In this document: positions 4,261 to 54,596 of the stretch, in pieces
How positions within the stretch are numbered: the first letter of the stretch is position 1
Layout: each line of letters opens with the position of its first letter
Notes under the pieces: generated by a model
Databases searched by the model: none
Seen by the model: the letters and a program-made list of their open reading frames with translations, nothing else
What the model was told of the DNA's origin: nothing
Made by a program: the position numbers and the translations under genes
Assembly (NCBI GenBank): GCA_951406725.2
Contig: OX597838.1
Coordinates: 12,276,001 to 12,340,000 of the forward strand
Length of the DNA: 64,000 nt
Source of the DNA: Octopus vulgaris
Lineage: Eukaryota
Reading direction: 5' to 3'

Positions 4261-4572
4261 TCTGACGCTCTCTCCGACTTGGAGCAGTACCGTCCACTCT
4301 TATCAATTTCACTATTCTCATTCGCTTTTCAATAAACTCACTCGAGGACAGCACCGCCACCTTTCCACTCGCACCTTCGTTTTCATGTGAAACTTGAAAA
4401 CGTTGATGGGGTGGGGTCCAAGCAAAGAGGTAAGTCTCTGTCCTCGTTCCTTTCACTTTCGTCCACCACACAACCTCTTACACTATAACAACCAGAGAAA
4501 CAGTTGTCTTTACGCGATTTAAGGTTTGCAGAGTGGTAATCATTATTACAAACACATCTGATACCTAGTTCC

Positions 4573-4991
4573 TATTGCTTTATAGCCCACAAAGGGCTAA
4601 ACACAGAGGGGACAAACAAGGACAGACAAACGGATTAAGTCAATTACATCTAAGTACCAGTGTATAACTGGTACTTATTTAATCGACCCCTAAAGGATGA
4701 AAGGCAAAGTTGAGCTCGGCGGAATTTGACCTCAGAACGTAAAGACAGACGAAATACCTATTTCTTTACTACCCACAAGGGGCTATATAGACAGAGGGGA
4801 CAAACAAGGACAGACAAACGGATTAAGTCGATTACATCGACCCAAGTGCGTAACTGGTACTTATTTAATCGACCCCGAAAGGATGAAAGGCAAAGTCGAC
4901 CTCGGCAGAATTTGAACTCAGAACGTAAAGACAGACGAAATACCGCTAAGCACTTCGCCCGGCGTGCAAACGATTCTGCCAGCTCACCGCC
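4573..4991 (-). mobile_element. SINE family B, tandem dimer (junction 4758/4759)
   Basis: Same dimer junction as at 1926/1927. Confidence 0.88.
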
Positions 4992-5294
4992 TAGTACCCT
5001 CCTCCCCACAGCAACAGCTGTTCAGTATAACTTCACAAGTTAGTAATGCCCGAAATGTAAAGAAGTGCGTGCAGAACGCTTTCGTCACTCTGCGCGTATC
5101 TCGTACAGGCCCTTCTGATGGTATCCGCGTATCCGTAGAGCTCATGTATCGAAAAAATAGAGACACCCGGAACAAACTAACCAGTTCGTTTTCATCGAAA
5201 GCCAGAGTCTCACCAAGAATGCCGTTGCTCTTTACCACATTAACACTCGATTGCTACAATGGAATATCTATTGACACTATTGACCGACTGATAG

Positions 5295-5735
5295 AAAGGC
5301 GGTCACGACACGAAAACGCCGTCTGCCGCGGCAGTTGGCTGCGGCGGGGAGTCGGGAGTCGCAGGAAAGGGCGGCGTTCGCCGCGAGGATGCGGCAGACG
5401 AAGAAGGAGGAGACTCGTTCTCGCTTTTTTTGACTGCTTCCTCCGGCCCGATTAGCGCGCGAGCCGCCGCCGCTCGATCGTCCGTCTCCCACAATGCCAG
5501 ACCGTCATCGTTGCGAAGCGCTGCTGCGACGGCCGCGCCGCCCCGAATCGCGCGGCCGACGACGACACGCGGAGGAGCCCGACAAGCAGAAGCAGAGGAG
5601 GAATAACAACGACGGCGAGGCCGCACGCCCGTGGACGACGCCGCCGCCGACAACTAAGAGCGAAGCGAACGGTGGCATATCCGTTCGCGCCCGTCGATCG
5701 CTCCGTCGCACTCGTCTCGCATATATGCCAGGCGC
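5295..5735. other. GC- and CpG-rich island of unknown function
   Basis: Dense CpG and (GCC)n/(GAC)n runs in an otherwise AT-rich window; no convincing protein homology. Confidence 0.55.
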
Positions 5736-5894
5736 CCAGTTTCGGTCTTTGTTTCACGCAGGACTGCAGCTCCTCCGTTCCTATAGAGCTTATCTCAAAC
5801 AGCTAGAGCCTCCCGTAGCATCGGCCGACTAACAGCTTTTCGAAACTGTCCATTGTAGTCTCTGATCGAGAATGCCCCGAGACATACCGGCCAG

Positions 5895-6115
5895 TGGCAG
5901 ACACGTTAGCGCGCCGGGCGAAATGCTTAGCAGTATTTCGTCTGCCGTTTCGTTCTGAGTTCAAATTCCGCCGAGGTCGACTTTGCCTTTCATCCTTTCG
6001 GGGTCGATAGATAAAGTACCAGTTTCGCACAGGGGTCGATGTAATCGACTTAATCCCTTTGTCTGTCCTTCTTTGTCCCCTTTATGTTTAGCCCCTTCTG
6101 GGCAATAAAGAAATA
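5895..6115 (+). mobile_element. SINE family B
   Basis: Matches the family B sequence seen in the other copies. Confidence 0.88.
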
Positions 6116-6649
6116 TGTTAATCGACGCCCGAGCTTCAGTGAGAACGTTGTTGCTCTTTCCCTCTATTAAACCCCTATGCGTTGATAGACTGGAACTTTT
6201 ACCCACTGAAAGAAAGCAGAGAGCACCCCTGAGAAAGGAAAAAAGAGAAAAGGGAGGTAATAGATAACTTTATATTGAAAGCAGAGTTTAAAATTTCGTT
6301 TTGAGATTTGGTTTGCAAGATTCTTTAGGACAATAAAAATAAGAAAAAAGTGGAAATTTTACCGGTGAGTGTGTTAAATAATAAGCAACAAAAGGAAAAT
6401 GACTCTCCCCAGACACAACAGAGTTTAAAATGTTTGACCAAAGCGTTAACGAGGAGGTTGGCGTTTATTGTCAATAGGATGATCGGGGAAGCGAAAAATT
6501 GCGCAGACCCAAACAAATCCATCCACGTCTACCTGATGCTATGCATGATATAGAGGGCTGGAAATCAAATTCACTCGGTCAGATAAAAGCGTTCGGAATG
6601 GTCGATCATCGTTACGTAATGCCTGTTCAACCGCTGCTGCTGCTGTTGA

Positions 6650-7053: not shown

Positions 7054-7449
7054 TCTTAAAAATCGGTTTCTCAAAACGGATTGAATAATACCAGGTGAGT
7101 TTTCGACATTTTCTTGCAATTCTATTCGAAACTCCAGTCAAAGACAGCAAAGAATATGGAAGAATTTTTATGAGTTTAGCAGAAGAAACAGAACCAGATT
7201 TACGAATGGATAAACCACCCACCTTCTCCTCTTCCTCCTCCCCCTCCTCCAGTCCAGTCTTCGACTAATTTATGAATTTGCGATTTGATAACATAACACA
7301 CTGGAAAGGCTGTTCGATGCTCTTTCTTTAGTGGAGAAGTGTGTGTGTGTGTGTGTGAGTGTGTGTGTATGTGTGCGTGTATGGACACGCACACATGTAT
7401 ATATATGTCTGTGTATATGTATGGACATACGCATGTGTAAGTAAAAACG

Positions 7450-7510
<61 letters not shown>

Positions 7511-7561
7511 GTGTCTGTGTGTATATATATATGTATATATATATATATTTATATATATATA

Positions 7562-7624
<63 letters not shown>

Positions 7625-7909
7625 CCATATATATATTTATATATATATATGTATATATGTGTATATATATATATACATACAGACACACACACACATATAT
7701 ATATATATATGTATATATAGATATACATACATGTGAGTGAGTGTATATAGCTGCTAGCTAGTTCCTAGTTTATTCCCTAATGCGTTATTACGATATACAC
7801 GCGCACACTGATCGATATGTGAGTGTGTGTATACGTATGCATAAGTATATATAAATTCATATACACACACACATACATATATATATACATATATATATAC
7901 ATACATACA

Positions 7910-7941
<32 letters not shown>

Positions 7942-7966
7942 AGTATATATTTCGATACATATATGA

Positions 7967-8012
<46 letters not shown>

Positions 8013-8269
8013 CATAAATATATACGTACACAGATGAGGTGGGTGGTTACGCGCCTATTTACACATCGGCTTCTAATACGGCCATCCATACTTAGCTCGG
8101 ATAAGCAACAAACGCGCGTCTACTTCGGCTCTTCACTGCTGCCGGCCAAACCAACTCTCTGTTCTCCGCTCGAGTGTTATTACAACATCAAATAAGTAGT
8201 CGCGAGAAACAAGCCTCAAATTAAGCGAACGTTAAAACAGCTAATCTCAATGGCGGCGGCGGCGGTGCT

Positions 8270-9010
8270 GGTAGTATGGTGGTGGGTGGTGGTGGTGGTG
8301 GTGGTGGTGGTGGTGGTGGTGGTGGTGGTGGTGGTGGTGGTGGTGGTGGTGGTGGTGGTGGTATGGTGGTGGTGGTAGTATGGTGGTGGAGGTGGTGGTG
8401 GTGGTGGTGGTGGTGGTGGTGGTGGTGGTGGTGGTGGTGGTGGTATGGTGGTGGTGGTGGTGGTTGTGGTGGTGGCGGTGATGATGGTGGTGGTTGTGGT
8501 GGTGGTGGTGGTGGTGGTAGTGGTGGTTGTGGTGGTGGTGGTTGTGGTGGTGGTGGTGATGGTGGTGGTGGTGGTGGTGGTGGTGGTGTTGGTGGTGCTG
8601 GTGCTAGTGGTGGTGCTGGTGATGGTGGTGGTGGTGATGGTAGTATGATGGTGGTGGTGGTGTTGGTGGTGGTGCTGGTGCTAGTGGTGGTGCTGCTGGT
8701 GATGGTGGTGGTGGTGGTGGTAGTATGATGGTGGTGGTGGTGGTGGTGGTGGTGGTGTTGGTGGTGGTGGTGCTGGTGCAAGTGCTAGTGGTGGTGGTGG
8801 TAGTATGGTGGTGGTGGTGGTGGTCGGCGGCGGTGCTAGTGCTAGTGGTTGTGGTGGTGGTGGTCGGTGGTGGTGGTGGAGGTGGTGGTGGTGATGCTGG
8901 TGGCCGTTGTTGATAGTGGTGCTTGTGGTTGTGTTGATAGTGTTGGTGGTGGTAGTAGTGGCAGTGGTGGTGGTGGTAGTAGTGGTGGTGGTAGTGGTGG
9001 TGGTGATGGT
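8270..9010. repeat. (GGT)n compound microsatellite
   Basis: Direct reading. Confidence 0.95.
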
Positions 9011-9254
9011 ATGGTTTGGCGATATGTAATGCTGCTGGTTGTACCATGCCGTCGATGACGTGCGCTACCGGTACGGTTGTAGTAGTAGTAGTAGTAGTAG
9101 TGTGATGGTATGATAAAATTTTGGTGTAAAAATATTTGGTATTATGATGGTGATGATGGTGGTGTTTGTGATGGGACAAGTAATTCTGGCATTGGTGGTG
9201 GCTCATGTGGGTGGGTGGGTAATCTCAAGTCAATGGTAACCGTTCATCTTTACA

Positions 9255-9535
9255 CACGAAGGGGTGCTGAAAGGGTCCTGGCTTTTCATGAGGGTATCAT
9301 GAGGGTATCATGAGGCCCAACTTTCTGAGTTTTTATTCTCCTTTTTTTTGCAGGGCTTAGGAAAAAACTGAGGGACCGCTGCAATAAGTATGTGAATCTG
9401 TGAAGGAGATATTTTGAATAAAATCATAATTAACTCATCGTCTTGTATTTTCTTTTACCCAAAGCCAGGATTATGTCAGGCACCACCACCACCACCACCC
9501 TCCACCCCACCACCCTCCACCCCACCACCCTCGTA
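9255..9535 (+). mobile_element. Mariner-derived deletion derivative (MITE)
   Basis: Imperfect TIRs (cgaaggggtgctgaaagggtcctggcttt and aaagccagga...cagg-caccacc...ctcgta). Internal remnant RCNKYVNL/GDYFE* (across a frameshift) resembles a mariner transposase C-terminus. Confidence 0.55.
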
Positions 9536-9999
9536 TATGTCCTGAACAAGATTTTCTGGAAGATTAGTAACGACCCATTGTTATAAGCCTGCTGATCTCA
9601 CTCCATGATCGCTATTCACCTTTTACACCTTACCTGTTGCAGTCACTGAACTGCGGTCGTGCTGGGGCATCACTTCGATGGGGTTTTTAGTCCGAAGAAA
9701 TCGACCTCAATATTTAGCGTCATTGAAGTCTGGTATTTATTTTATCGCTCTCTTTTGCTGAATCGCTAAGTTAAAGGGGACGTAAACAAACTAACACCTG
9801 TTGTTAAGTGATGGCTACAACAAACACACACACACACATGTATACATTCATACCCATATATATATAAGTACTTTTTTCCTATTTGTAATCACCCCACTTG
9901 TCGTATGGTTAACACCATATAGATTTCCGGTGCATCCTAGTTAAGGACCATATTCATGTGAATTCATTAGAATTCACTTGAATCTCAATTACTTAAACC

Positions 10000-10052
<53 letters not shown>

Positions 10053-10118
10053 TCACTTAGAAAATCATATGCATATTTGAATGGGTGTTTATCAGCGTCA
10101 GCTCAGCCAAAGTGTTAT

Positions 10119-10165
10119 TCTGTGTCGACGAAGGGAAATAATCCTGAAACCGTACGGTCCGCAGA
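10119..10165 (+). ncRNA. Hammerhead-like motif with a variant core (TCGACGA)
   Basis: tctgtg-TCGACGA-aggg(aaataa)tcct-GAAA-ccgtacgg-TC-cgcaga. Confidence 0.5.
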
Positions 10166-10337
10166 TACTGCTTTGTGCTCGATGGGGGGATGCAAACATC
10201 CCCTGTTCGAAAATATAAGGACACAGATCGTGTGTCGTATAGCCAGCTGGAGACAATGTCTACTGGATCTAAACAACAGTAGCATTCGCTCCAAATAGGT
10301 TTGCCATATTAGGTTAGCAAATAATCGTCACTTTAAT

Positions 10338-10432
<95 letters not shown>

Positions 10433-11252: not shown

Positions 11253-13043
11253 GGAATTGAGTATATATGTAAGCGATCGTACGTACATGTATGTGTATGT
11301 GTGTGTCTGTGCCGTGCGTGTGGCGTTTCCGATCGTTGTCTTTGTGCCTGTGAGCTCGCAGATGTATACATATATCTACGTATGTATCGAAGGATATGTG
11401 TGTGTGTGTGTGTGTGTGTAACATATATGTACATATGTTACCTACATAATAAATTAATAAATAAAATAAAACATATGCATATATACATACATATATGTAC
11501 GTACCTACCTCGACATGCATATATACATGCATATATGGGTACAGGACACCAAAAAAAAAACGTCGAACACAATGAGAAACGAAGACATAAACACAAAACC
11601 AAGGAACTGGACATTTTTCTCAAAAAAACCAAATAGAGTACAGGACATACAATACAAGGAAAATTCCCCTTCTTTAGTCGCCTTTGTTTCATCTACTCCG
11701 CGTTTCGAAGGTCAAGGCGAGACACGGCTTTAATGAAACTTTCCTTCCCGCGAAAAGCAAATTACCTACATACACAGGTGCTTGGAGTCACGGGCGGAGC
11801 AGGCAGCGGAATGGGGTGGTAGGGAGCGTGAGAGGAAAGGAGCGTCTTCGGCATCCTCGACCCGCACTGGCGAATATTGCCCACGACTCCTTCACCATCA
11901 CCTTGGACTCCAAAGTTACATTCAGCACAAACATCTGCTGAGGAGACTAGATAGAAACTGATGGACCCAATTCTCTGATACAAGCTGGAGCCAACGACGA
12001 CGATACGAGGTTGTTAAGCGAAATATTTTTTGCACTCTTGCTTCTATAATTTATTATTAAAGTTGAAGATTTCTATCACTTTCAACATAGTCCCCGGCCC
12101 CTTGCTTTTTGAGACACTTCCTCCAGCGGTCCACAGGCTTGCTTATTCCATCGGAGAAGGTTTTCAGCTGGTTGGGCTGTCATCTATATACCTATTTCTT
12201 TACTACCCACAAGGGGCTACACACAGAGGGGACAAACAACGACAGACAAACGGATAACAGTAGAAATAAAGAACATAATATTCAATGTAATAATAACATT
12301 TGCATTATATACGTAATAGTTAAATTATATATAAAACACTTCATTGCGTTTTTGTTACATGCTTGATTCCCCTGGTTCGTGGAAAAAATTGCGTTGTACG
12401 AAACCAGTCCGCGACGCAAAAACGCGGTTTTGAACCGCTGTCGTACACCATCATATAAAGTATTTAATTACCTTCTTTCTTTACTTTCTTAATTGTTGTT
12501 CTACCGGTAAATTTTCCAGTCGCAAAATGGAGCTTCTATTTCCCGCTTGTACAAAGTAAATATAATTGAGAAACTTGTTGAAGCCTTACGAAATGACAAG
12601 AAGCTAATTATCTGATGGCGTCAAACAACAGTAATTAAATTCTAAAACTTTTCCAAAGTCATAGTTTTAAAATTTCGACGAAGTCTGCGCCACTTGAGGG
12701 AAGTTACAAAATCACGTGACTTCACCATAACACTTTGGCTGGTTGCAACAGTTTATTACGAGTTAATAATCTTTATTAATTTTTCAGATGTGAATAAGTG
12801 GGAAAGGCCATCTTATATTTGAATAACCTTTATTCATGTATATATAGTATAAAACACACACACACACACACATACGCACACACACACAGATATATATGAA
12901 TACATATGTATGTATGTGTGTATGTGTGTGTCTGTATATGTATATGCATATGTATATGTATGCCCGTATATAGACTGGTGTGTCTGTGTATATGTACGTG
13001 ATTGAATGTATGTACATATCCTTACATATATGTAATATATATA

Positions 13044-13482
13044 TATCTGTAAAATAATATGTGACAATTATTCAATAGCCAAGATAAAACTCTGAGTTTC
13101 GGATGCCGAGGTGGAAATCCACAACACCATCTCTTCGGTTATCTGGCCAAATATATTTCTTTAGTACCCACAAGGGGCTAAACACAGAGGGGACAAACAA
13201 GGACAGACAAACGGTTTAAGTCGATTACATCGACCCCAGTGCGTAACTGGTACTTAATTTATCGACCCCGAAAGGATGAAAGGCAAAGTCGACCTCGGCG
13301 GAATTTGAACCCAGAACGTAGCGGCAGAAGAAATACGGCTACGCATTTCGCCCGGCGTGCTATCGTTTCTGCCAGCTCGCCGCCAACCGAAAAGATGGTA
13401 TTGTGGATTTCCACCTCGGTATCCGAAACTCAGAGTTTTATCTTGGCTATTGAATAATTTGTAACATATTATCTTACAGATA
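13044..13482. repeat. Inverted repeat (about 97-bp arms) surrounding a SINE B
   Basis: 13044-13140 is the imperfect reverse complement of 13385-13482. Confidence 0.85.
13154..13384 (-). mobile_element. SINE family B lying in the spacer of an inverted repeat
   Basis: Full-length copy between IR arms 13044-13140 and 13385-13482. Confidence 0.88.
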
Positions 13483-13547
13483 AATTTTCTCTATTTACAT
13501 AATATTGAGGTCTCTTTCTTTCTTTTGTTATCTTACCGCCGTTTTTA

Positions 13548-14247: not shown

Positions 14248-14791
14248 ATTCTGCCTAAATAATGGAACTGCAGATAAAATATCCCTGCGTATCTCACGTT
14301 TATTTTCATTCCTCCACTTCACTCTCTATTTCATATCTTATCTAGAATAACTATTGCTTAACCATTCTCTCACACCGTTTATTAGCTGCCAAAACTCTTC
14401 CGAAGACGGGGGGTAGCTCGACGAACGCACGAGCATATGGAGTTCTAACACGAAGTTATTAGTATCGCTATACCTAAGAGAATTATTGGTTTTAAATTTG
14501 GCATAAGGCCAGCAATGTCTGGGTAAGGATAAGTAGATTACATCGACCCCACGTCTCTTCTCTTTCTCTTTAAAATGAAAAGTAAATAGATGAAAATTCT
14601 TTACGGAAATTAACGAACCCCGGACGACAGTTATGAGGGTCAAAGCGAAAGATCGCCATTCACTTGAAAATAATTCAAGAAGAATTAAAATATAATTTGT
14701 TTAAAGAAAGCTAAAAGATAAATACTTACTGTACAAACAACTTACATTTTTGAAATCACATTCACTTGAAAATATTTCTAAATGATTAAAA

Positions 14792-15008
14792 TATTCTTTT
14801 CTACTCTAGGCACACGGCCCGAAATTTTTTGGGAAGGGGGTCAGTTCATTAGATCAACCCCACTACGCAACTGATACTTAATTTATCGACCACGAAAGGA
14901 TGAAAGGCAAAGTCGACCTCGGCGGCATTTGAATTCAGAACGTAAAGACAGACGACATACCACAAAGCATTTTGCCCGGCGTGCTAATGGTTCTGCCAGC
15001 ACACCGGC
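14792..15008 (-). mobile_element. SINE family B variant with an alternative 3' tail
   Basis: Same head and central domain, but the tail is ccttcccaaaaaatttcgggccgtgtgcctagagtagaaaaagaat. Similar tails occur near 39450, 46180, 51700 and 53530. Confidence 0.75.
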
Positions 15009-21880: not shown

Positions 21881-22489
21881 TATCTGATCCTTCCTCTGAG
21901 CGAAAGAATGTGTTCTGAGACTTGTAATTAATTTTTTTTTTTCGTTATTTACTTTTTTTTTTGTGTGTTTTTTTTTTTTTTTTTTTGGTCTCTTACATTG
22001 CTAAAAGGAATTAAATTCTATGTAGAGAAACAGTGTAATGGCGATGGTGGAACCTGTTCTGCTATAATTCCATTCACGTCTCGAATCCATTATAAGAAGA
22101 TTTTTTTTATGTTTTGTCTTTTACTTGTTTCGGTCATTGTGCGGTGGCCATGCTGGGGCACCACCTTGATGGGTTTTTTTGTCAAACAAATATCTACCTC
22201 AGCACTTATGCCTTTTATTTCAATCTGGCACTTATTCTATTGATTTCTTTTGCTGAACCGCTAAGTTACGGGGAAGTAAACTAATCCACACCTAGTTATT
22301 ATTTTAAACCTGTAGACATTCTATTATTTTTATGCCCATAATTTGTGTTTGTGTGTGTGTGTCTATATATGTGAATATAAATATTTATGTGTGTGTGTTT
22401 GTGTGTGTGTATGGTTTTTTTTAGAAAAACATAAAACCGGAAAAGCACACTCTAAGCGGTAGAGAAATCTATATTTATTATTTACATGT

Positions 22490-22720
22490 GCGGTGAGCTG
22501 GCAGAAACGGTAGCACGCCGGTCGAAATGCGTAGCCGTATTTCGTCTGCCGTTACGTTCTGAGTTCAAATTCCGCCGAGGTCGACTTTGCCTTTCATCCT
22601 TTCGGGGTCGATAAATTAAGTACCAGTTACGCACTGGGGTCGATGGAATCGACTTAATCGCTTTGTCTGTCCTTGTTTGTCCCCTCTGTGTTTAGCCCCT
22701 TGTGTGTAGTAAAAGAAATA
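22490..22720 (+). mobile_element. SINE family B
   Basis: Full-length match. Confidence 0.88.
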
Positions 22721-22959
22721 TATATTTATTACTGGTGGTGGCAGGGTTAAAAGGCCTGTTGGCCTATGGTCTCTTTAAAATCTGGAGGGGAAAACGATAC
22801 AGATATGAACAATAGGGATTATCTCCCTTTGCTGCTGGTCATCGGCTTCCGGCTATGTCGTCCTCCTTCAGCTACGCCACTTGTCGGCTGAGGTTAAAAG
22901 TTAGGGGGCAGGTTATCTCCCACTGTCATCAGCAATCAATTTCCAGCTGTGTTGCAACT

Positions 22960-24260
22960 GACCACAAACCAACTTTGCCTCTAACACTAAGTGATCAACC
23001 CGGCCAGATCCGAGATTGGTCTGGTGAGGAAAGATTTTGTGAGATATCAATAATACCATCAGAAGGGTAACTAACCTCTCCCTGTGGCGCAGTACCGGCG
23101 AAGTGACCGCATGGTTTAACGTCAATAAGGGTTGAGGCAGGGGAAGGTTCATCCAGTTTGATATAGTCGATTTTTACCCGTTTATATCGAAAGAGTTACT
23201 GGCCAAAGCACTTTCTTTCGCAAGGGGCCTCACTGACGTTAGAGATCATTATACTGTTTAACAAAGGTTCGGTGTTGGTCAAACAATCCGACCCCTCGGC
23301 TCCTTTGACGTAGTGGTGGGAGCCTACGACAGTGCTGACGTTTGCGACCTTATTGGATGGTATAACCTGGATACCCTTAGGAAAAAATTTCTCTTTGTCC
23401 TCTTTGACCTCTACAAAGATGAGGCCCTGGCTATCTCTCGGGGAGCAAGTGGCCAGAAGCATTTCATTTTCTTCAGTGGTAACACTAACCGGTGAACCAC
23501 TTATCTGTGCATTGCAGATGGACCCACTCTGCTCGAATTTGTCACGTATTCTGTAAACTGTTGATCTTGACGGAGCTGGACTTTGGAATTTTTCAGTCCA
23601 TTCCTGTCTAACCATTTCTGCTGTACTGCTTGATGATTCACTTTCCGTCATCGTTCATCAAATTTCCAGCCATATAATAAATATCTGAAATTAGGAACAA
23701 TTATTTTATCACAGAAAGAATTAAATGAAAAGAACATAGAATCATAGAATACCACACCGTATACGAAAAAGTGAAAAATAATAGAAAAATCCACACCATA
23801 CGTCAATGGATCAAAAAATGTAAGCTATGCGTAGCTGAAAGAACACAAATCCTTTTCAGATCTAAGAACTCTACCACACTGCTGAATTCCAGATCTGAAA
23901 TTTTCAGCGGTTGTAAACATATGGATAAGTACCTGTTGGCGAATTAGAAAGTAACATCCTCCCTGGATTGAGCAGCTGTACTGCAGACTCTGGGCCACAA
24001 TCCTTTCAGCCTTGTAAATTTACGGTCAAATTCTCCTCCTTTTGCTTCTTACTGTTTTCTTTTTCGTTTTCCGGTTTTTTAACCTTCCACCTTTTATATC
24101 TACTTCTTTCTTGCCTTTTGTCGTTTTCTTTCTCATCCCATCGTCTTGTTTTTAGTTTACCATACCATGAGGGCACGGCTTGAGCGCTAAAGCACCAGAC
24201 GTGTTAAAAACGCTGTCTGGGCTTCGTTCGTCGCATGAAACTGATAGTAGCTTATAAAAA
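22960..24260 (+). pseudogene. Decayed Penelope-like retroelement (probably Naiad clade): RT and C-terminal remnants
   Basis: Hand-translated motifs: INPARSEIGLVRK; LWRSTGEVTAWF; FIQFDIVDFYPFISKELLAKAL (from 23148); DVVVGAYDSADVCDLIG; LYKDEALA; CKLCVAERTQIL...LLNSRSEIFSGCKHMDKYLLAN* (23819-23947). Contains stops and frameshifts. Confidence 0.8.
23460..23690 (-). pseudogene. Tc1/mariner-superfamily transposase N-terminal HTH fragment, inside the Penelope-like element
   Basis: VRQEWTEKFQSPAPSRSTVYRIRDKFEQSGSICNAQISGSPVSVTTEEN resembles the DUF4817-type HTH followed by an SGRP-like motif. Confidence 0.7.
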
Positions 24261-25952: not shown

Positions 25953-26766
25953 CATGCACGTATATGTGTATAGAATATTAATTCGTAGCTGAGTCTACAT
26001 GAGTGAGTAATCGGAATTCTTCGTTCGTGATCTTAGGGTTTGGGAACGAGGAATTTACGGAGATTTACCTTTGGATAAAAGTTATTCCACTCTGTTTCAC
26101 AGTATTGATTGATTTTTTTAATCAGTCCATTGCAGTTCACACCTGTATGAATCCATTACATGATCGTAAATATGAGCACAAAATACACAGATTCACACAC
26201 ACACATATACACTAAACACACGTGTATATATGCGCGCTATATAGTATTTAATATCTAAACATGTTTGCATAATATACGTGTGCATAGTTATGTGTATATA
26301 TGTGTGTATATGTTGCGTGTATGCATATACACACACGCACACATACATGCACACACACACACATTTATATATATAAATTAAGAGAAAATGGAGATTTATG
26401 ATTGACACATTTTAATTCATTAACATAATATATTATTATTATCATTATTATTATTATTATGATCATCTAATATATGATGTATATATTAACAATATAATCT
26501 TAGAATTGTTTGAATTCAGACCCAATAATAAATTTATAAAATATTCATATTATATCATATTATAATATTTATGTAATATTATGTTAATAAATTAGAAGGT
26601 GTCAATCGTAAATCTCCATTTCTTATTCATTTGGTATATTGAATATATAACTATTTGGATTGTGGATAAGTTTTTTTCTGGTATACTGGGTACAAAAACG
26701 CCAAACTAGTGAAAAACGGAATGTTTCCACCCCTATAAAGAAGACTGTTTTCCTTGCTTTGAATTT

Positions 26767-28653: not shown

Positions 28654-28796
28654 TACGACGGGCTTCTTTCAGTTTCCGTCTACCAAATTTACTCACAAGG
28701 CATTGGTCGGCCCGAGGCTATAGCAGAAGACACTTGCCCAAGATGCCACGCAGTGGGACTGAACCCGGAACTATGTGGTTGGTTAGCAAGCTACTT
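28354..28796 (-). mobile_element. SINE family A, 3' portion (split by the LINE insertion)
   Basis: Collinear with the intact copies at 374-772 and 60833-61285; ends at the TSD. Confidence 0.9.
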
Positions 28797-29024
28797 TATT
28801 TCATATAATTTGCCATTTAGGCATTTACAAAGAGGGGACAAACAAGGACAGACAAATATAAAGGGTGAAGTAGCTTAACACAGTTACAATTTTCGAATGA
28901 AATTACGGATAAGATTATAAACAATGAATTTTACGAAGGCAATGTTTAAAAATATTAATGATCATGTCGAAGGACGGACACCCAGCCATCCGGGTAGAAC
29001 CTTTACTTTCTGATCCGGTCACAC

Positions 29025-30929
29025 TTACCTGGTGCCAAACATACCCATCTTGTATGCCACAGGCTTCCATCTTTTCACAAACATATCTCGTGACAGACAC
29101 CTCTTCTCCAGCCTGATTTTGCTACTGAGGTGGTAACTAAAAAAGTTAATCAACCCCTGGCCGGAGACAAAGGTGCCTGTCACTATACCTTTCGTACGCG
29201 TCTTCCATACTGTTTCTTTCAGTATGGCTACTACACAGAAAAAACAAGCCTTTCTTTCCCTGTTAAGGAAAGGGGGCGGCACAATCTCGATGATAGACTC
29301 AGCTGATAGCTGTACTCTTCCCATCACTGACAACAGTTGTTCTACAAAAGCTATCAGTCCCGATAACTCCGGACACTCCACGAATGCGTGCAAGACGGTC
29401 TCCCTATTCTGCTCACATCGCGGGCATGTCGGCGAGACGGCACTACCGTGCCTTGACAGCTTGTCGCGAACAGGTAAAGCCGCACGGAAACATTGCCAGG
29501 CTAGGGATTTCTGGTAATTATCCAGATACCCCGGCCCGAACGTCCTCCGGAACAGGTTGATCAACTGATTTTCATCGTAGCCCAGGGTCTCCCCCAAGGC
29601 GTCTTCGGACTTAATCTCCACTAACCCGCTATAGAAATCCGTGGTGGAACTCCTGTTGCCGGCGTTGCCCACCCGAGATAGTAGCTGGAGCGCCTGACGG
29701 CACTCCAAATGCCATTCACTCAGTTTAGGTCTCCGCTTGATCCATGCACCGATGTCCGTTAGGGATGTTAACTGGGGAAGGTAGAACCGGACGTGCGGCG
29801 ACCACACCTGCTCTCCATCCAGGTAAAGCCAGAGGTGCCTCAACCTTAACGCGAGTTTTCGCATCCTCAGCCAAGGCATCCCTAGCCCACCCTTTAGCGG
29901 TTTCTGGCAGCAGACAGAGCGCTTTACAAGTGGCTTTCCTCCTTTCCACAAAAATCGGAAAAGGATTCTCTCCAACTTGTTCAGCCACAAATCGGGGCAA
30001 GGCACCACGGTCAAACGGTAGGTGATTACTGATGCTATAAACATCTGCACCACCTCCGCCTTCCCTAGCAGGGATAACGCCCGCCCAGACCAGGTCTGGG
30101 TTAGAGCGGTCACCTTGTTGGCCACCTCACTCCAATTTTTCTCAATCTGGAGGTCTGGCCCGAACCAGACTCCGAGCAGCTTAACAGGACCTTCCGTCCA
30201 ACGCCCTACGACGTTATTGGACGGCATCGGCTTGCCCCTCCAGGTGCCGAGTTGCAAACCGACCGACTTGTCCTTGTTAACCTTTGCTCCTGCCACCGCC
30301 TCGTAGCTTTTTATGGCCTCTTCCACCACTGGAAGCTGGCCTTCGTCTGCCACGATGATGGAGGTGTCATCCGCATACGCCGTAGCTCCTCTTCCACACC
30401 ATAGATCATGCGGCGCGCCCCCTAGTGCCTCCAACTTCCGCAGCAAAGGCTCAAGAGCCAATACGTATAGGAGCGAGGACAGGGGACACCCTTGACGAAC
30501 TGAACGCTCGATCCTGAACGGCTTCGAAAAGGAACCGTTCACCTTGACTACAGACTCGATGTCGCTATACAAAGCAGCGATCCAACCTCGAAAGGTCGGG
30601 CCTAGGCCAGCCTCTCCGAGGACCGCCGCCAGGTACCGATGGTCGACCCTATCAAATGCTTTGGACTGGTCTAAATGTATCAGTGCTCCCCCTGCGCCAG
30701 AAAGCTTCCCCACCCTCTCTAAGGAGTAGCGTATAAGGTGGAGATTGTCGTGGATCGTTCTGCCGGGGATAGCGCACGTTTGCGCTTCCCCGACAAGTTT
30801 GTCCACGACCCGCGCCAACCTTTTTGCTAGCACCTTGGCCAGAATCTTTAACTCTGTGTTTAACAGAGTTATGGGCCTGAAGTTCCCTATCTCGTCCCCC
30901 TTGTTCGGGTCCTTCCTGATCAAGGTCAC
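29025..30929 (-). CDS. LINE ORF2 C-terminal part: reverse transcriptase and C-terminal zinc finger
   Basis: RT motifs FRPITLLNTELKILAK, LDQSKAFDRV, VRQGCPLS, AYADD, LLGV; GGLG; CPRC...ETVLHAFVEC zinc finger typical of L1/Tx1 ORF2. Confidence 0.95.
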   Translation of the reverse strand: MTLIRKDPNKGDEIGNFRPITLLNTELKILAKVLAKRLARVVDKLVGEAQTCAIPGRTIHDNLHLIRYSLERVGKLSGAGGALIHLDQSKAFDRVDHRYLAAVLGEAGLGPTFRGWIAALYSDIESVVKVNGSFSKPFRIERSVRQGCPLSSLLYVLALEPLLRKLEALGGAPHDLWCGRGATAYADDTSIIVADEGQLPVVEEAIKSYEAVAGAKVNKDKSVGLQLGTWRGKPMPSNNVVGRWTEGPVKLLGVWFGPDLQIEKNWSEVANKVTALTQTWSGRALSLLGKAEVVQMFIASVITYRLTVVPCPDLWLNKLERILFRFLWKGGKPLVKRSVCCQKPLKGGLGMPWLRMRKLALRLRHLWLYLDGEQVWSPHVRFYLPQLTSLTDIGAWIKRRPKLSEWHLECRQALQLLSRVGNAGNRSSTTDFYSGLVEIKSEDALGETLGYDENQLINLFRRTFGPGYLDNYQKSLAWQCFRAALPVRDKLSRHGSAVSPTCPRCEQNRETVLHAFVECPELSGLIAFVEQLLSVMGRVQLSAESIIEIVPPPFLNRERKACFFCVVAILKETVWKTRTKGIVTGTFVSGQGLINFFSYHLSSKIRLEKRCLSRDMFVKRWKPVAYKMGMFGTR

Positions 30930-32425
30930 CGCCCCCGGCTCGCAGACTTGGGAATTCTCCCATTCTGCTGCCAGTTGGCGTAGACGCTAGCCAGCAGGTG
31001 CCCGAACAAGTTTGGCATACTTCTATAAAATTCATAGGGCAGACCATCGAGACCCGGCGACTTCTCCCCGGGGCACTTGCCCAACACCTCGATTACTTCC
31101 TCGGCTGTGATTGGCCCTTCACAGCACTCAGCCTCTCGTGTCGAGAGGCGCGGACCACCAGACAGGAAGTCCCTAAGGGCCTCACCATGATCCAGCGTCC
31201 CGCACCTCCCGAACAACTCGGCGAAGTGCTTGTGGAGTGCCTCACACATCTCGTCCCGCTTCTTGATCGTGCATCCGTTTTCATCAACAAGAGACCCAAT
31301 TGTGGCATCGTTTCCACGCTGTGTTTCTATCGTACGGGCCCATCCGGCAACATTAATTCCCTCACGGCCCAATGCTCGTACTTTAGCCCGGACTCTACAT
31401 CCCTCATGTTTGGTTTTGAGGTGACGGTCTAATGCCGTTCTCGCCGCTAAAATGTGAGATGCAGAGCCCAACCTCAACGCCTCCTCTAAGTTCTTAACTA
31501 GTTGCCCTTCTATTCTAGCCCTATCTAGTCTTAGTTGTTTACTAAATCTAATGGACTCGAATCGAATGGCTCTTTTGAGGGTGAACCACCACCGGTTATT
31601 AACCACGGCTCCGGTTAACGCCCTCTGCACTAACACCTTAATCCGGCTACGGTATGCCTCGCGTGTCAAAATAGACTTGTTCAGCTTCCAGTAGCCGGTT
31701 CCTATCTTAAGTGTGCTATCTATGTCCAGTCTACACGTGACCATTCTATGGTCAGTATAGGGCACCTGGACGAGCTGTGGACAACTAAAACTAGACTTAT
31801 CTCTAGTTCTTATCACTATCCTGTCTAGATAAGACTTGAACTTTCCGTCGCCACTCATCCAGGTCCACTCTGGGACGTTCGGATGGTCAAGTCTGTAACG
31901 ATCTGCTAGCTGAAACCGCTTAAGCAGATCCACGAGACGTGAGTTCACTTTCCTATAGATCGAGCCAACGCTATCGATGTGTACGTCAACGATAGCATTA
32001 AAGTCCCCTAATATCACTAAAGTCTTCGACGTCACGAGAAAGCCCTCTAGGCGCCGATAAAAATCAGTTTGGAAACCTCTAGCACAAGGTGCATAGAGTC
32101 CGATCAACCTGAAGGCCTTACTGCTGTATGTCACATCAAGGACGACCAGCCCACCTTCTGGGTCTACATAGACTGTACTTGTCTGTAGAGCCAAGTCTTT
32201 ACGGATCAGTACCACTACGCCCCCTCGCCCTCCGGTCTGGCCAGGAGACATGATTTTCTCGTAGCCATTCAGGAGAGGCGAGAAGGTTTGTAGGCTGTCC
32301 AGCTTGGTCTCTGTAGCAACCATCACATGTATATCATGTGATCTGAGGTCGTCGAGGAAACAAGCCTGCTTCCACTTCGAACTCAGACCACGCACATTTA
32401 AACAACCAAGGTTAAGCGAAGCCAT
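30926..32425 (-). CDS. LINE ORF2 N-terminal part: APE-type endonuclease and linker
   Basis: APE motifs LNVRGL, ATETK, LYAP, LGDFN, LDRI, YTDH; GYWKLN; KSPGLDGLPYEFY leading into the RT domain. Frameshift in a G run at about 30932-30936. Confidence 0.92.
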   Translation of the reverse strand: MASLNLGCLNVRGLSSKWKQACFLDDLRSHDIHVMVATETKLDSLQTFSPLLNGYEKIMSPGQTGGRGGVVVLIRKDLALQTSTVYVDPEGGLVVLDVTYSSKAFRLIGLYAPCARGFQTDFYRRLEGFLVTSKTLVILGDFNAIVDVHIDSVGSIYRKVNSRLVDLLKRFQLADRYRLDHPNVPEWTWMSGDGKFKSYLDRIVIRTRDKSSFSCPQLVQVPYTDHRMVTCRLDIDSTLKIGTGYWKLNKSILTREAYRSRIKVLVQRALTGAVVNNRWWFTLKRAIRFESIRFSKQLRLDRARIEGQLVKNLEEALRLGSASHILAARTALDRHLKTKHEGCRVRAKVRALGREGINVAGWARTIETQRGNDATIGSLVDENGCTIKKRDEMCEALHKHFAELFGRCGTLDHGEALRDFLSGGPRLSTREAECCEGPITAEEVIEVLGKCPGEKSPGLDGLPYEFYRSMPNLFGHLLASVYANWQQNGRIPKSASRGR

Positions 32426-32441
32426 TACAAAAGTAAAGGTT

Positions 32442-33843
32442 CTACTTACATTTCGTTGGAGAGGTAGGGGCCGACCTCACCACACGTTTGTGGGCCCCTT
32501 CTTTCTCCTCTTTCTTCAGATAGTCCGGCAAGTTCGCGATATGCCGGATGGCGTTTGGGTGTCTGTCTTTTAATTGTTTGAACGTTGTTTCCGCAATCCA
32601 CGCGTGTCTATTTCGATCTTTGTATTTGTTGTACAGTCTTGCTGACTGATGCTGAACCACAATATCGTTTATGTATTTGTCTTGTGTGTCGAATTCAATT
32701 AATATGAGTTCATTTTCTTTTTTGTCTTCTTTTTCTGGGCCAGTTGAGCGGGATTTTTTTTTCCGTGTCTGTGGTGTGTCTTTGTTTTTATTATTTTTTG
32801 TAGGGGATGTGGACGGGGATGCTGCACGAATTCTTTTACGAACTGGTGTAAATCCCCCTCTGATACCTCCATGGTATCGTCTGTGGTAGCAATAGTTTGT
32901 TCGGTAGGCGCCGCAGTTTTTAGGGGGTGGGAGGTTTTAATAGTGTAGGGGTTTGTGAGTGCGAGGGCTGGGGTTTTTCTTCAGTCTGTTTTGGGGTTGG
33001 CACCGTAACAGCAGGAGTGGGATTTTTTGTTTTTGTAGGGGTAGGTGTGTTTGCAAGGGTAGGGACTTTTTTATTATCTGAGGGGCCTGGTGTCTGCGGT
33101 TTCTTTTGCTTGTCTGGACAGTCTACACGAATGTGGCCCTTTTTGCTGCAGGCGTAACAGGTGGGTTTTCGGCCTTCGACCGGTACCCTGAGGGCTACGT
33201 TCTCGCCCACGAGCACCCTCTCAGGAAGGAGCTGCAGGTCCTCCGCTGTTCCTTGAATTAATATATTAATGTTACGCCCGAGCCAAAATCGAGGGGTAGA
33301 GCATGTTACTTCTAGTATTTTTATTTTGTCCGCCCTTTTATATAACAGGGCGGCCACTACCTCTACCGGATCTACGTCCGGCGGGGCTTCTACAATCCTG
33401 ACCCGGGACGACCTGCGTCCCCTATAGCTTGGAAAAAGTACCACCTCCTTGGTTTTTAGGGGGTTCACAGAATGCCCGCGGGCCATTTCTTCCCCCGAGA
33501 AGCGGACATCCACAGTGCCATATGCCCGTCCCCTGGCGACGTACACGATGTCCTTCCAAATCGGGGACAGGCATTTCTCGATGGTGCTTTTTTCAAAGTG
33601 TTTGAACCTTCTGCTTTGTGGACAGAAAGTTTTAAACACTACGGTCCGCTTCTCGGTCTCCACGATACTAGCGGAGGGTGATATTTTAACATCACCACCC
33701 TCCTCTTGCATTCTTTTAAATAGCTCGACGAGCTGGTTGACATCGATGTCAATCTTCTCGGTAGCCACTGCGGCTTCCTCAGAAAATTTTTTAACATTGC
33801 TCTCCTCAAGAGCACTACTTTCGTGAATAATTTCAACAGACAT
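32442..33843 (-). CDS. LINE ORF1 (gag-like zinc-knuckle protein), interrupted by at least one frameshift near 32925
   Basis: First ATG at 33843 (MSVEIIHES...). CCHC knuckle CYACSKKGHIRVDC followed by a Pro/Thr-rich linker. The frame stops at 32920, but another frame is open from about 32924 to 32442 (GFTPVRKRIRAASP...SPTKCK*) and ends just upstream of the ORF2 ATG. Confidence 0.75.
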
Positions 33844-34232
33844 TATTCTGTTGAAATTAGACAACACAAAAATTACGAATATTGGTTTCCCACAAAACTG
33901 GGAAACCTATAGAAAGTTTTTCTTCCAAAGTAGTTCAAAAAAGCAGTTCAAAAATTCCAATTCCCACCCCCATTCGGGGGAGGGGCACGAAAATAGTCTG
34001 GCAGGACTATATATAGTCACGTAAATAAAAAGCCACAGTGGCTAACAGTTCAACGGTAAGAAATTATTCAATTATTTCCCGGTAAAACCGGAGAACAAGA
34101 CAGTTCAGCAACGTTTAAAGGCAAATTTTCAGTAGTAGGAATTCAACAATTAATAACACAGCAAAACTCTTACCGGGAAGAAAACGCGTCCAAACCGTAG
34201 TACGGTAGGCAAAGTCACTCTTCTGTCAGTGA

Positions 34233-34270
34233 GGTTAGCGAGCTACTTACCACACAGCCACTCCTACGCC
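34233..34270 (-). mobile_element. SINE family A, 5' head portion (split by the LINE insertion)
   Basis: Reverse complement is ggcgtaggagtggctgtgtggtaagtagctcgctaacc, the A-box head of family A. Confidence 0.9.
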
Positions 34271-34272
34271 TG

Positions 34273-34407: not shown

Positions 34408-34503
34408 ATTAGAATTAATCAAAGGACATACCATATATGTCTACCTGCTAACTATGTCTCCAGCAGGTAGACATACTTAGTATGTCCTTTGATTAATTCT
34501 AAT
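34408..34503. repeat. Inverted repeat (about 40-bp arms)
   Basis: attagaattaatcaaaggacatac..tatgtctacctgct / agcaggtagacata..gtatgtcctttgattaattctaat. Confidence 0.85.
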
Positions 34504-38002: not shown

Positions 38003-38077
38003 AATATTAGGGAATAAATCCAAATTTACAGGGAAAAATCAGATTTAGGATTGAATCCAATTTTATAGTAAAATATA

Positions 38078-38394
38078 ATATAATATTAATTAGAGACAAA
38101 ACCACTATTATGCAAATCAAAGAAAGAAAGACTTAATCCAATACATAAAAAATTTTATATAAATTAAATATAATTAAGATATCCACTACGATCGTTTCTT
38201 GTCACTTCTATGGACATTCATCAGATGCATAGAAGGTCTTGAAACCACCTGATGAATGTCCTTAGAAGTGACAAGAAACGATCGTAGTGGATATCTTAAT
38301 TATATTTAATTTATATAAAATTTTTTATGTATTGGATTAAGTCTTTCTTTGTTTGATTTGCATAATAGTGGTTTTGTCTCTAATTAATATTATA
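38078..38394. repeat. Inverted repeat (about 146-bp arms, about 24-bp spacer)
   Basis: 38078-38224 versus 38249-38394, near-perfect. Confidence 0.9.
38245..38290 (+). ncRNA. Minimal type I hammerhead ribozyme motif
   Basis: ccac-CTGATGA-atgtc(cttagaagt)gacaa-GAAA-cgatcg-TA-gtgg. An inverted second copy lies at 38183-38228. Confidence 0.75.
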
Positions 38395-38413
38395 TATATA
38401 TATATATATATAT

Positions 38414-39326: not shown

Positions 39327-39676
39327 TTCGCACTTTCCGTTACATTCTGACGGAGAGCAGCAGACCGAAACTTCGAACTCACTACCATCCTTCTTGGTAT
39401 AAAAGCCTAACAGCAACAACAATAATAATAATAATCATAGTAATTATTTCTAATATAGGCACAAAACCTGAAATTTTAGGGAAGGGAGCTAATCGATAAT
39501 ATCGATCTCAGTGTTTCACTAGTACTTAATTTATAGACCCCGAAAGGCTGAAAGGCAAATTCGAAACTCAGAACGTAGCGACAGGCGAAATACCGCTAAG
39601 AATCTCGTCCAGCGTGCTAACGATTCTGCCAGCTCGACACCTTAATAATGATGATGATCATAATGATGATGATGAT

Positions 39677-44192: not shown

Positions 44193-44205
44193 TGGAAGGT
44201 AGACC

Positions 44206-44411
44206 GAGCTGGCAGAAACGTTAGCACGCCGGGCGAAATACGTAGCCGTGTTTCGTGTGCCGTTACGTTCTGAGTTCAAATTCCGCCGAGGTCGACTTTG
44301 CCTTTCATCCTTTCGGGGTCGATAAATTAAGTACCAGTTACGCACTGGGGTCGATATCTGTCCTTGTTTGTCCCCTCTGTGTTTAATCTCCTTGTGGGTA
44401 GTAAAGAAATA
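44206..44411 (+). mobile_element. SINE family B
   Basis: Match with a short internal deletion. Confidence 0.85.
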
Positions 44412-45580: not shown

Positions 45581-46199
45581 ATGTATATATATATACCATA
45601 TATATTTATTGATACATATAAAGATGCAAATGAAAGTGGTGAACCAAAGAATATATGCCAACCAGCATATTTGCGAAAGATATGGTGGAGGAGCTTAAAA
45701 AAAAGGTGTAGGAGCCATCAATAAGTTTAAATTTCCACTCAATTATCGATAATTCATAATTCTTGCCGAGTTACGTAGTTAGATGTCAAAAATATAATAG
45801 GTATGAGGGGAAAAGTTGGGAGCAAGGGGGGAGAGAATCTAAAATTTAAAAATAAAGCAAGATACTTATGGAAATCGATTTGAACTGATCGATTAGTAAT
45901 CAAAAGAATGGATATCATAAATTTGTGATAGCAAGAACTAATTACGTCACTAATTTGATCAGAAGCCCTTATTTTTTATAGGGTACATACATATACAATA
46001 CACAGGCTCTAGCGCAGGAAATAATACCACGGAGAGCTTTTCGTCCGTTTTTTACGTTTTGAGTTCAAACTCTGCCAAGGTTGACTTTGCCTTTCATCCT
46101 CTCGGAATCGATAAAATATGCACCAGTTGAGCACTGGAGTCGACGCAGTCGACTTACCCACTCTTTCGAAATTGCTGGGCTTGTGCCAAAACGTGAAAT

Positions 46200-46259
<60 letters not shown>

Positions 46260-51287: not shown

Positions 51288-51839
51288 TTTTCTCCCTCAT
51301 CACAGTGTCTCCAGGTCAAACTACTTAATTCCACATTTTCTCACTTCAACCTGTCAGGAATGATATCAGATCATTCCGGACAGACATTCTCGGACTTCTT
51401 TTTCTTTTCTTTTCTTTTCTTTTTTTTCTTTTTTATTTTGCTTGTCCCGAGTACCCCTTCATATCTTCATGTGTCAGGCAATGTTGGTGTACCTGCGTGA
51501 AGAATATAACGTAAAGTGATTGGATACTATGGAACAAATGCTAGACATGTGTTAATTTTTATTAATTTAGTTTAATTTAAAGTGTTCAAATCCTGCTTTG
51601 GTCAACCTTAGTTTGCATCCTTCCGGGGCCGATAAAATAAAGTACCAGTCAAGTACCGGGGTTGATAAAGTTGACTGTTCCCTTCCCCCAAAATTTCTGG
51701 CCATGGGCTTATGTGAAAGGTGAGTTTCATATAATCTAATGTCAATGGGCCATTTACAGTAGTATTTATTGAAATGTCATATCTTATGGACTCGCTTTGC
51801 TAAAGATACAAATGAATATATCACAGAGAGAGAGGGGGC

Positions 51840-52030: not shown

Positions 52031-52286
52031 TTTGATATTCATCGTATTTTTGACACAACAAATCAATAGAGGATTTTATCTTAGAATATATACAGCAGTA
52101 ACTAGTCTATCGACTGTATGTATACCTTAAGTACGATAACATTTAAATAATGAGGGAAATAAATTGAATATTAATTTAATTAATATCAATTTAAAACCAG
52201 TAGCCTAGCATACAAAAATCTGAAAAATCAGAGAAAATTCTAATACATGTGTATATTTAAAGCGCTATAAAACTACTAGGCTGTCA

Positions 52287-52451
52287 GCCGTATGCTAGAA
52301 GTAGATCACCTACGATCAAACTACAAAGAAAAGAATGTTCTCTAGAGGAAAATTCAACGGACATTTTGTTCTGGTGTCCGCTGAATTTTCCTCTAGAGAA
52401 CGTTCTTTTCTTCGTAGTTTGATCGTAGGTGATCCACTTCTAGCATACGGC
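52287..52451. repeat. Inverted repeat (about 77-bp arms, 11-bp loop)
   Basis: 52287-52363 versus 52375-52451. Confidence 0.88.
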
Positions 52452-53002
52452 CGACCACCTTTAGTACGATACATAGATGGCTATTTTAATTAGTTTTAAT
52501 GTTTGTCACTTTTCAATAAATAATGCAATTCTAGACCCAGTTCCAGAGACGTACACCCACATATCATTCTTAATTGACAGTCTTGTACGAAATTCAATTT
52601 GGGTTCGTAAACTTCACTGAAAATCTTTAACAATAGTGAGCGGGAACCACAAAAGGCTCTCCAAACATTTAATAAACACAAAATACATGCTGTAATAATT
52701 AAGTTGTGGGTTAATTAGGGATATACTGATTAGTGTATGGCAATCTGGTGACGGAATGAAACGGTGATGATTAAATCTGGACTGTGTGTGAAGGAGTGTA
52801 CGTAGATATCGAACTGTCAGATAAATTCATCCGTTCCCGCCTTCCATTATATTTTAATCTTCTCCAACGGTTTTTGAATTAACGTTATTAATGTTTTTAT
52901 CGAAGTACTTTATGGGGGTTTCTTGTAACTCTGATCTTCCTCCACAATTTTTGTTTATTGTTCTTGAAATTGGAATAATATTTACTTGTTTTCAGACATA
53001 TA

Positions 53003-53422: not shown

Positions 53423-53804
53423 ATAGTGATGAAATGCCAAGTATAAAAAAATGCGAAGGAACTCATCAGACAACTCAACAGATAAGGTGGACAGACAGAC
53501 AGATTGAAACAAAAACAAAAATATTGGCTTCAAATTTTGGGACAAAACCTGCAATTTCAGGAGAGGGGTAAGTCGATTACACTGTCCCCATTGTTCAATT
53601 GGTACATTATCGATCCCTAAAGAATGAAAAGAAAAATAGACCTCGGCGGAATTTGAACTCAGAATGTAAAGAAAGAGGGGAAATGCCGCTTAGCATTCTG
53701 CCAACTTGCTGCCTTTAAAAAGTAATAATTACAAGAACATTGAAGCTTCCAACGTCTACAGTGAAGTAAAGAATAAATATATAAACAAATTTCGTCATAT
53801 TATT

Positions 53805-54250: not shown

Positions 54251-54366
54251 TGGAACAGAGGGCTGTTGACCTGAGCAGGTACCACGCCTTGGCCTGTGAC
54301 TCCTTAGGAAGCCTTACTCGGAGTCTTTCACCTACCGTTGCAATATTAACACCATCCGGTGTTAAA

Positions 54367-54596
54367 GGCGGCGAGTTGGCAGAAACGTTAGCACGCCGGG
54401 CGAAATGCGTAACCGTATTTCGTCTGCCGCAACGTTCTGAGTTCAAATTCCGCCGAGGTCGACTTTGCCTTTCATCCTTTCGGGGTCGATAAATTAAGTA
54501 CCAGTTACATACTGGGGTCGATGTAATCGACTTAATTTGTTTGTCTGTCCTTGTTTGTCCCCTCTATGTTTAGCCCCTAGTGGGTAATAAAGAAAC
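54367..54596 (+). mobile_element. SINE family B
   Basis: Full-length match. Confidence 0.88.

Follow-up and report, generated by a model that had tools for sequence, protein, structure and literature searches.

Homologous 3′ tails in a Tx1-group LINE and an abundant SINE of Octopus vulgaris

In a 64,000-nucleotide stretch of the Octopus vulgaris genome (assembly GCA_951406725.2, contig OX597838.1, positions 12,276,001 to 12,340,000 of the forward strand; hereafter the window, with positions counted from its first letter), a full-length long interspersed element (LINE) of the Tx1 group occupies 5,436 bp of the minus strand (28797-34232), as defined by target-site duplications (TSDs), protein domains and a phylogenetic tree, and its last 60 nucleotides are homologous to the tail of a short interspersed element (SINE), referred to here as SINE B. 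The two TSDs, each of 16 bp on the minus strand (5′, 34233-34248; 3′, 28781-28796), differ by one mismatch and enclose the shared tail, as the initial annotation had stated. Open reading frame (ORF) 1 (32442-33843, minus) contains a CCHC zinc knuckle, which is a feature of the Tx1 group, and matches PF00098 with an E value of 2.6e-4, above the cut-off; it has 446 relatives at E ≤ 0.001, and the ZCCHC3-type domains present in fish and frog relatives were found neither in ORF1 nor in 28 of its 150 listed relatives. ORF2 (29025-32425, minus) comprises an apurinic/apyrimidinic (AP) endonuclease (PF03372), a reverse transcriptase (RT; PF00078) and a zf-RVT domain (PF13966). Each frame appears from its sequence to be broken once, by an apparent frameshift near 32920-32936 in ORF1 and by another near 30930-30935 in ORF2, placed at 30932/30935 in alignments to relatives. 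The 3′ untranslated region (UTR), 228 nt long and lacking poly(A), extends over 28797-29024 (minus). The element is inserted in the head of a tRNA-like SINE other than SINE B, both halves of which align to an intact copy at 53002: the 5′ part at 34233-34271 (minus; aligning to positions 1-39 of that copy, the approximate extent of the fragment) and the continuation at 28661-28796 (minus; approximately positions 24-159, 95% identical). This host SINE is presumably OK-like.

The LINE belongs to the Tx1 group, in agreement with the L1/Tx1-type assignment made initially. In a maximum-likelihood tree of 22 RT rows, built without human L1, CR1, L2 or RTE rows, its RT falls in the starred clade of 16 rows with a support of 99/98, together with Xenopus Tx1 (P0087), elements of fish and frogs, and a protein from a coral that bears the name TX1; a fish protein with an L1-type ORF1 domain (P0119), assigned to L1 on the basis of its PF02994 domain, lies outside this clade. 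BLASTP of the RT gives 205 bits to Xenopus Tx1 and 168 to P0119, and the identity to the Xenopus Tx1 ORF2 (P14381), which likewise combines AP endonuclease, RT and zinc finger, is 36% over 380 amino acids. Among solved structures, human L1 ORF2p (116-119 bits) scores above R2 (49-67 bits). The nearest named RT relative is an Argonauta hians protein (60% identity, 99% of the query covered); cuttlefish proteins are more distant. Two proteins labelled Herbaspirillum sp. (MAG) (P0188 and P0306) are 56% identical to the RT and probably represent animal DNA in a bacterial bin.

The homology of the LINE tail with that of SINE B is centered on a pyrimidine-rich block of 26 nt (28831-28856, minus), which on direct reading is composed of degenerate YTGT units. 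The annotation had described this block as identical in the two elements, followed by a hairpin of different sequence at the same position and by a common end without poly(A), and all three features are borne out: the block is identical at 26/26 positions, the hairpin starts 7 nt after it in both elements, and the terminal GAAATA (28797-28802, minus) agrees at 6/6. In the window, the block has 12 matches at no more than three mismatches, six of them exact, compared with none in 100 dinucleotide shuffles, and allowing five mismatches adds no further match in the window; the 12 comprise the LINE and 11 SINE B tails, with none elsewhere in the window, and the twelfth SINE B tail carries an indel (approximately 60185-60252). 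The longest stretch that the LINE 3′ end has in common with the SINE B majority sequence measures 26 letters, against at most 11 in 200 mononucleotide shuffles, and 45 of 60 columns agree between the LINE tail and the majority of eight ungapped SINE B tails. The region after the block, taken alone, is marginally above chance (p = 0.038; 10,000 shuffles, one SINE copy); over the 60 nt that precede the block, the two elements show no relationship (p = 0.67). The homology starts at SINE position 174, and three alternative SINE tails part from one another just after position 169. As for the letters preceding GAAATA in SINE B, the AGTAAA reported earlier does occur, but AATAAA is commoner. Searches of viral and prokaryote collections gave no match to the block, nor did alignment recover any locus of a close LINE relative there; a metagenome scan confirmed 80 of 338 loci, all distant (28-47% in the best segment), and its matches to the 3′ UTR and SINE B, no better than E 0.29, are uninformative at such distance.

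SINE B is represented by 12 copies in the window, which diverge by 3-10% from their own majority sequence and show a B-box-like motif; neither ARAGORN nor Rfam at the gathering threshold reported a tRNA or structured RNA in the window. Four of the copies form two dimers on the minus strand: the upstream unit of the first (1927-2135) is followed by a second unit starting at approximately SINE position 50 (1743-1925), and the upstream unit of the second (4759-4991) is followed by one with the same breakpoint (4573-4757). The remaining copies lie at 5888-6115 (plus), 13154-13385 (minus), 22490-22720 (plus, with a TSD of at least 11 bp), 44205-44411 (plus, with an internal deletion), 54367-54597 (plus, with a 16-bp TSD), 55589-55816 (minus), 60023-60252 (plus, with an indel in the block) and 12193-12253 (minus), the last being 5′-truncated to the tail from SINE position 172. 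This tail-only copy was considered as the end of the true partner LINE and was rejected, as tblastn with Tx1 proteins found nothing upstream. The same SINE B head and body also carry two other tails, C1 and C2, in three copies each. Tail C1 is joined to head and body at 14793-15006 (minus), to the body at 39440-39636 (minus) and, in a C1-like form, to a decayed body at 51584-51720 (plus); tail C2 is joined to the body at 46053-46203 (plus) and 53522-53668 (minus) and is present in a 5′-truncated copy at 14483-14551 (minus). The tails are swapped just after a short palindrome at SINE positions 152-166 (approximately), and tails C1 and C2 keep the hairpin geometry. A C1 or C2 tail free of a SINE body was not recognised in the window, where one weak match was noted at 20146. 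SINE B may correspond to the CORE-SINE OR1/OR2, whose central CORE domain it would seem to resemble.

Both dimers share one junction, at which the GAAATA tail end is joined to SINE position 50 or thereabouts (GGTATTTC), and the TATTTC at this junction is complementary to the SINE B terminus. The units of the dimers differ mutually by approximately 6-10%, and GGTAT follows two more SINE B copies (12193 and 60252). The dimers could have arisen by template jumping guided by head-tail pairing or by self-insertion. In two copies (54340-54613 and 22465-22735), approximately nine extra bases stand between the TSD and the SINE start, those at 54358-54366 repeating, for the most part, a portion of the TSD in inverted orientation. 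Another copy is centered in a long, MITE-like inverted repeat (13090-13485).

A two-tier stem-loop is predicted in the LINE tail at 28804-28829 (minus; minimum free energy and centroid structures, z = -2.1), in which an upper stem pairs 28823-28820 with 28814-28811 around a TAAAT loop and a lower stem pairs 28829-28825 with 28808-28804. A stem of 4 bp with a loop of 5 nt, standing before an A-rich end, is present in the LINE and in all SINE tail types (B, C1 and C2). When 13 of the 19 tails are aligned, pairing is kept in 49 of 52 stem cells, compared with 23-50% at slid control positions; three of the four pairs are changed on both sides, and none of 500 shuffles reached the covariation score. 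The covariation check suggested at the outset comes out positively across LINE and SINE tails, within these 13 tails of four types. The alignment does not include five SINE B tails (1775, 4605, 22662, 44353 and 60185) or the decayed C1-like tail, and in four of these six the stem is broken or unclear.

Sequencing-run contigs indicate that the tail is the 3′ end of a LINE family and not a capture in one copy. Contigs of four of the 24 listed runs (X1, X2, X14 and X15, from four studies) were aligned to 28670-29620 at 85% likeness, and the evidence is drawn from 32 records listed and 40 of 147 difference rows. At positions 29408, 29493 and 29502, all four runs disagree with the window in most of their depth, which implies that the contigs represent other copies or the family majority; judged from these alignments, the window copy carries private changes at the three positions. 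A variant base at 28806, at the end of the tail, is found in 8, 8, 36 and 1 contigs of the four runs, and a loop variant at 28818 in 5, 3, 13 and 1, and the existence of many versions of the LINE-type tail makes a one-off capture unlikely; the alternative raised initially, a SINE fragment captured in a single LINE copy, is accordingly not borne out by these runs. Record 21 of run X15 (28774-29107, two differences) joins UTR, block, hairpin and flank in one contig, and record 1 of X1 and record 26 of X2 pass from the UTR into the block side for 30 and 22 letters, respectively, without any difference. The summed contig depth of run X14 over the UTR is 7,365-10,385, against 44-74 for single listed contigs, and is not a copy number. 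One X15 contig shares the LINE terminal hairpin and departs behind 28823 with other letters, from which it follows that a relative without the block exists.

The same contigs bear on the insertion site: they point tentatively to a LINE family that has repeatedly chosen one position within the head of another tRNA-like SINE. Distances from the end were read as measured on the aligned piece, a reading inferred from the X15 values (18 at 28806 and 6 at 28818) and from the loose end behind 28823; taken in this way, the 28806 variant is carried by an X14 contig that covers at least 28766-28846, and the loop variant by an X2 contig that covers at least 28772-28864, so that variant tails continue into the same host-SINE flank. 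Record 19 of X15, a diverged host-SINE copy with 15 differences, reaches 28804. Alignment to 28670-29620 favors contigs with the host-SINE flank, and 693 further loose ends exist beyond those listed. This host-SINE site seems to be used also by a related element, which shares the terminal hairpin and differs in the letters upstream of it; this element could be either a sister LINE or the LINE family's own SINE.

Elsewhere in the window, a second Tx1 relative, decayed and rearranged (4277-6627), has pieces on both strands with approximately 36-60% amino acid identity to close relatives; it is interrupted by three SINE B units, and the end of its ORF2 runs into (GA)n. No SINE B-type tail was seen after this ORF2 end, which runs into microsatellites. 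The ORF at 23199-23654 (minus) has a weak match to the DUF4817 helix-turn-helix (E 1.2e-4, just under the cut-off) and is possibly a transposase remnant. Other hairpin elements occur in the window, for example at 26375-26632, 34408-34503, 38073-38401 and 52283-52455.

Several known systems resemble parts of this arrangement. In the available portions of two reviews of LINE/SINE pairs, 58 pairs are surveyed and three SINEs carry tails of the L1 clade, from maize, sorghum and Chlamydomonas, none being animal or Tx1 (PMC3472496, PMC3747384); the initial remark that such a tail is unusual for the L1 group accords with this count (PMC3472496, PMC3747384). Among them, ZmSINE2 and ZmSINE3 with LINE1-1_ZM, and SINEX-3_CR with L1-1_CR, are similar in that an L1-clade LINE and a tRNA SINE share approximately 50-80 nt of 3′ end with a hairpin showing compensatory changes (PMC3472496, PMC3747384), but they belong to plants and a green alga, are not Tx1 and end in poly(A) or poly(T), whereas the octopus elements end in GAAATA. 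In these sources Ohshima has proposed that strict 3′-end recognition was ancestral in plant L1s and was relaxed later (PMC3472496, PMC3747384). In crocodilians, the Tx1 group has been proposed as the mobiliser of SINEU, and Tx1 families prefer other repeats as targets (PMC4494074); there, however, Tx1-Mar was inferred to be the partner because it has targets in common with SINEU, which itself ends in poly(A), and the study found no LINE whose 3′ end resembles that of SINEU-1 (PMC4494074), so that the octopus pair differs in having a shared tail and an apparently unshared target. According to the same study, Xenopus Tx1L targets a DNA transposon (PMC4494074), whereas the octopus LINE family apparently targets a SINE head.

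Recognition of a structured tail has been described in the stringent L2 elements ZfL2-1, ZfL2-2 and UnaL2, whose two-tier 3′ stem-loop is read generically in the stem and specifically in the loop (PMC4176376); these are of the L2 clade with recognition demonstrated by assay, whereas for octopus such recognition is a working model. Among molluscs, a counterpart is known in the bivalve HCD SINE/LINE pairs, in which SINE bodies bear exchangeable LINE-derived tails of 35-61 bp with 72-95% identity (PMC11481361); their partners are CR1, CR1-Zenon, L2 and Nimb, and Tx1 is unmentioned in the main text (PMC11481361). As regards octopus itself, OR1 or OR2 is named as its CORE-SINE in the literature (PMC4758252, PMC4824008, PMC5804259), and Table 1 of Ohshima 2013 gives no partner LINE for OR1, OR2 or OK (PMC3747384). 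No match was obtained in the MetaSINE supplements (PMC4824008), one file lying outside the search. The literature searched, which included PMC5786205, PMC10294476 and PMC9115989 but not Repbase, Dfam or SINEBase, yielded no report of an octopus Tx1/SINE tail pair, of Tx1 targeting a SINE, or of any L1/Tx1 pair in an animal whose two members have the tail in common. In O. vulgaris, 80 L1-Tx1 families have been catalogued, and 11.6% of the assembly consists of SINEs (PMC13282606). The tail homology described here, at the level of families, between an octopod Tx1 element and an abundant SINE is real, and its structural support is modest. The octopus SINEs OR1/OR2 and OK were reportedly described by Ohshima and Okada in 1994.

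The explanation considered most probable is that a young family of octopod Tx1 elements truly ends in the 60-nt tail, and that in its lineage ORF2 would bind a structured 3′ end without poly(A), in which the pyrimidine block is followed by a stem of 4 bp closed by a loop of 5 nt and then by GAAAUA, and would start target-primed reverse transcription at the GAAAUA. SINE B would then have taken its tail from a Tx1 family of this lineage and would use the ORF2 of that family; the active partner would most likely be a sister or ancestral family with a CUUGU loop and an endonuclease without site specificity, and not the family of the window LINE, whose loop is UAAAU and whose insertions are apparently directed to the head of another SINE. 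The present partner of SINE B is slightly favored to be such a sister family with the SINE-type loop, because the L2 RT reads the loop (PMC4176376) and SINEU shares the target of its Tx1 partner (PMC4494074). The transfer from LINE to SINE, the recognition of the tail by the RT and the identity of the partner are, in this explanation, deductions from the shared tail, whose agreement at 45/60 falls within the 72-95% over 35-61 bp accepted for bivalve pairs (PMC11481361); one SINE B copy also has a 16-bp TSD, as the LINE has. A number of observations weigh against it. The identity within the tail is uneven, 26/26 in the block and 13/26 in the hairpin region (Fisher p = 3e-5, with a boundary chosen post hoc), and recombination would fit this as well. 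The loops differ, being TAAAT in the LINE and CTTGT or close variants in the SINE tails, and a LINE with a SINE-type loop was not seen in the window, nor did collection scans give a close relative with DNA. The covariation comes from four tail types, and hence from few events, with six of the 19 tails left out of the alignment. Folding support is weak, with z from -2.1 to +0.4 over seven tails; among seven SINE B tails folded to minimum energy, five have the block paired to the 3′ end, one shows the exact hairpin and another a shifted form. By a 31-letter rule, UTR and block are bridged in one of the four runs among the records listed (X15 record 21). The SINE B copy at 12193-12253 begins at position 172, which makes the tail boundary a natural truncation point as well. 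As regards this LINE family as mobiliser, none of the 12 SINE B 3′ ends is followed by the LINE target, the best agreeing at 7 of 12 letters.

The opposite direction of transfer is rather unlikely, though the most probable of the alternatives: through template switching, gene conversion or 3′ transduction, SINE B may have passed the block, or its entire tail, to an ancestor of the Tx1 family, and would itself be served by a CR1, L2, RTE or Dong/R4 element. Such a course is suggested by the mosaic of the tail, in which the block groups SINE B with the LINE and the loop groups SINE B with C1 and C2, as well as by the X15 contig with the LINE hairpin and without the block, by the existence of the copy truncated at position 172, and by the CR1, CR1-Zenon, L2 and Nimb partners known for bivalve SINEs (PMC11481361). 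It is opposed by the stem, which is compensated between LINE and SINE at two pairs with the spacing to the block kept, and by the inference that a template switch starting on SINE B RNA would need the Tx1 RT to prime on SINE B; other LINE clades were moreover absent from the 50 of 86 filtered ORFs scanned, a weak test; the Pfam scan of those 50 window ORFs detected no RT.

The initial annotation had proposed that this element or a close relative mobilises SINE B, and the latter half of this proposal fits better than the former, given the different loop and the 0/12 at the target. That the window LINE family itself is the mobiliser, its RT reading the invariant block and the stem shape, ignoring the loop and having a loose target preference, is judged improbable. 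The perfectly kept block, which suggests selection in both elements, the 16-bp TSDs of the LINE and of one SINE B copy, and the young appearance of both would suit it, yet the LINE target follows none of the SINE B 3′ ends (best 7/12 letters), in crocodilians SINEU prefers the same targets as its partner Tx1-Mar (PMC4494074), and L2 RTs read the loop specifically (PMC4176376). A one-off capture of a SINE B fragment, or a chance match of low complexity, has been largely refuted and retains very little probability: the block does consist of degenerate YTGT units and record 21 of X15 could be the same locus in another individual, but shuffles gave no match, the block is absent outside SINE B and the LINE, a fresh capture would bring the SINE hairpin and not a different, compensated one, and variants of the LINE-type tail occur in many contigs.

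Extending the preferred reading of a sister Tx1 family as the partner of SINE B, it may tentatively be proposed, at less than even probability, that octopod Tx1 constitutes a stringent lineage within the L1 superclade, several families of which, each having an individual form of the covarying 3′ stem-loop and an end without poly(A), would have donated the three tails of a SINE body that ranks among the most abundant in octopus and would drive its amplification, one of them having specialised in a fixed site in the head of another SINE. If this is true, the finding would provide an animal L1/Tx1 pair with a shared structured tail together with a SINE as a Tx1 target, neither of which was found in the parts of the literature consulted. 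A structured tail without poly(A) in an animal Tx1 lineage would extend the stringent state to the Tx1 group, natural loop variants could serve as controls in testing, within the L1 superclade, the change from stringent to relaxed recognition, and a candidate engine for the amplification of SINEs in octopus would have been named.
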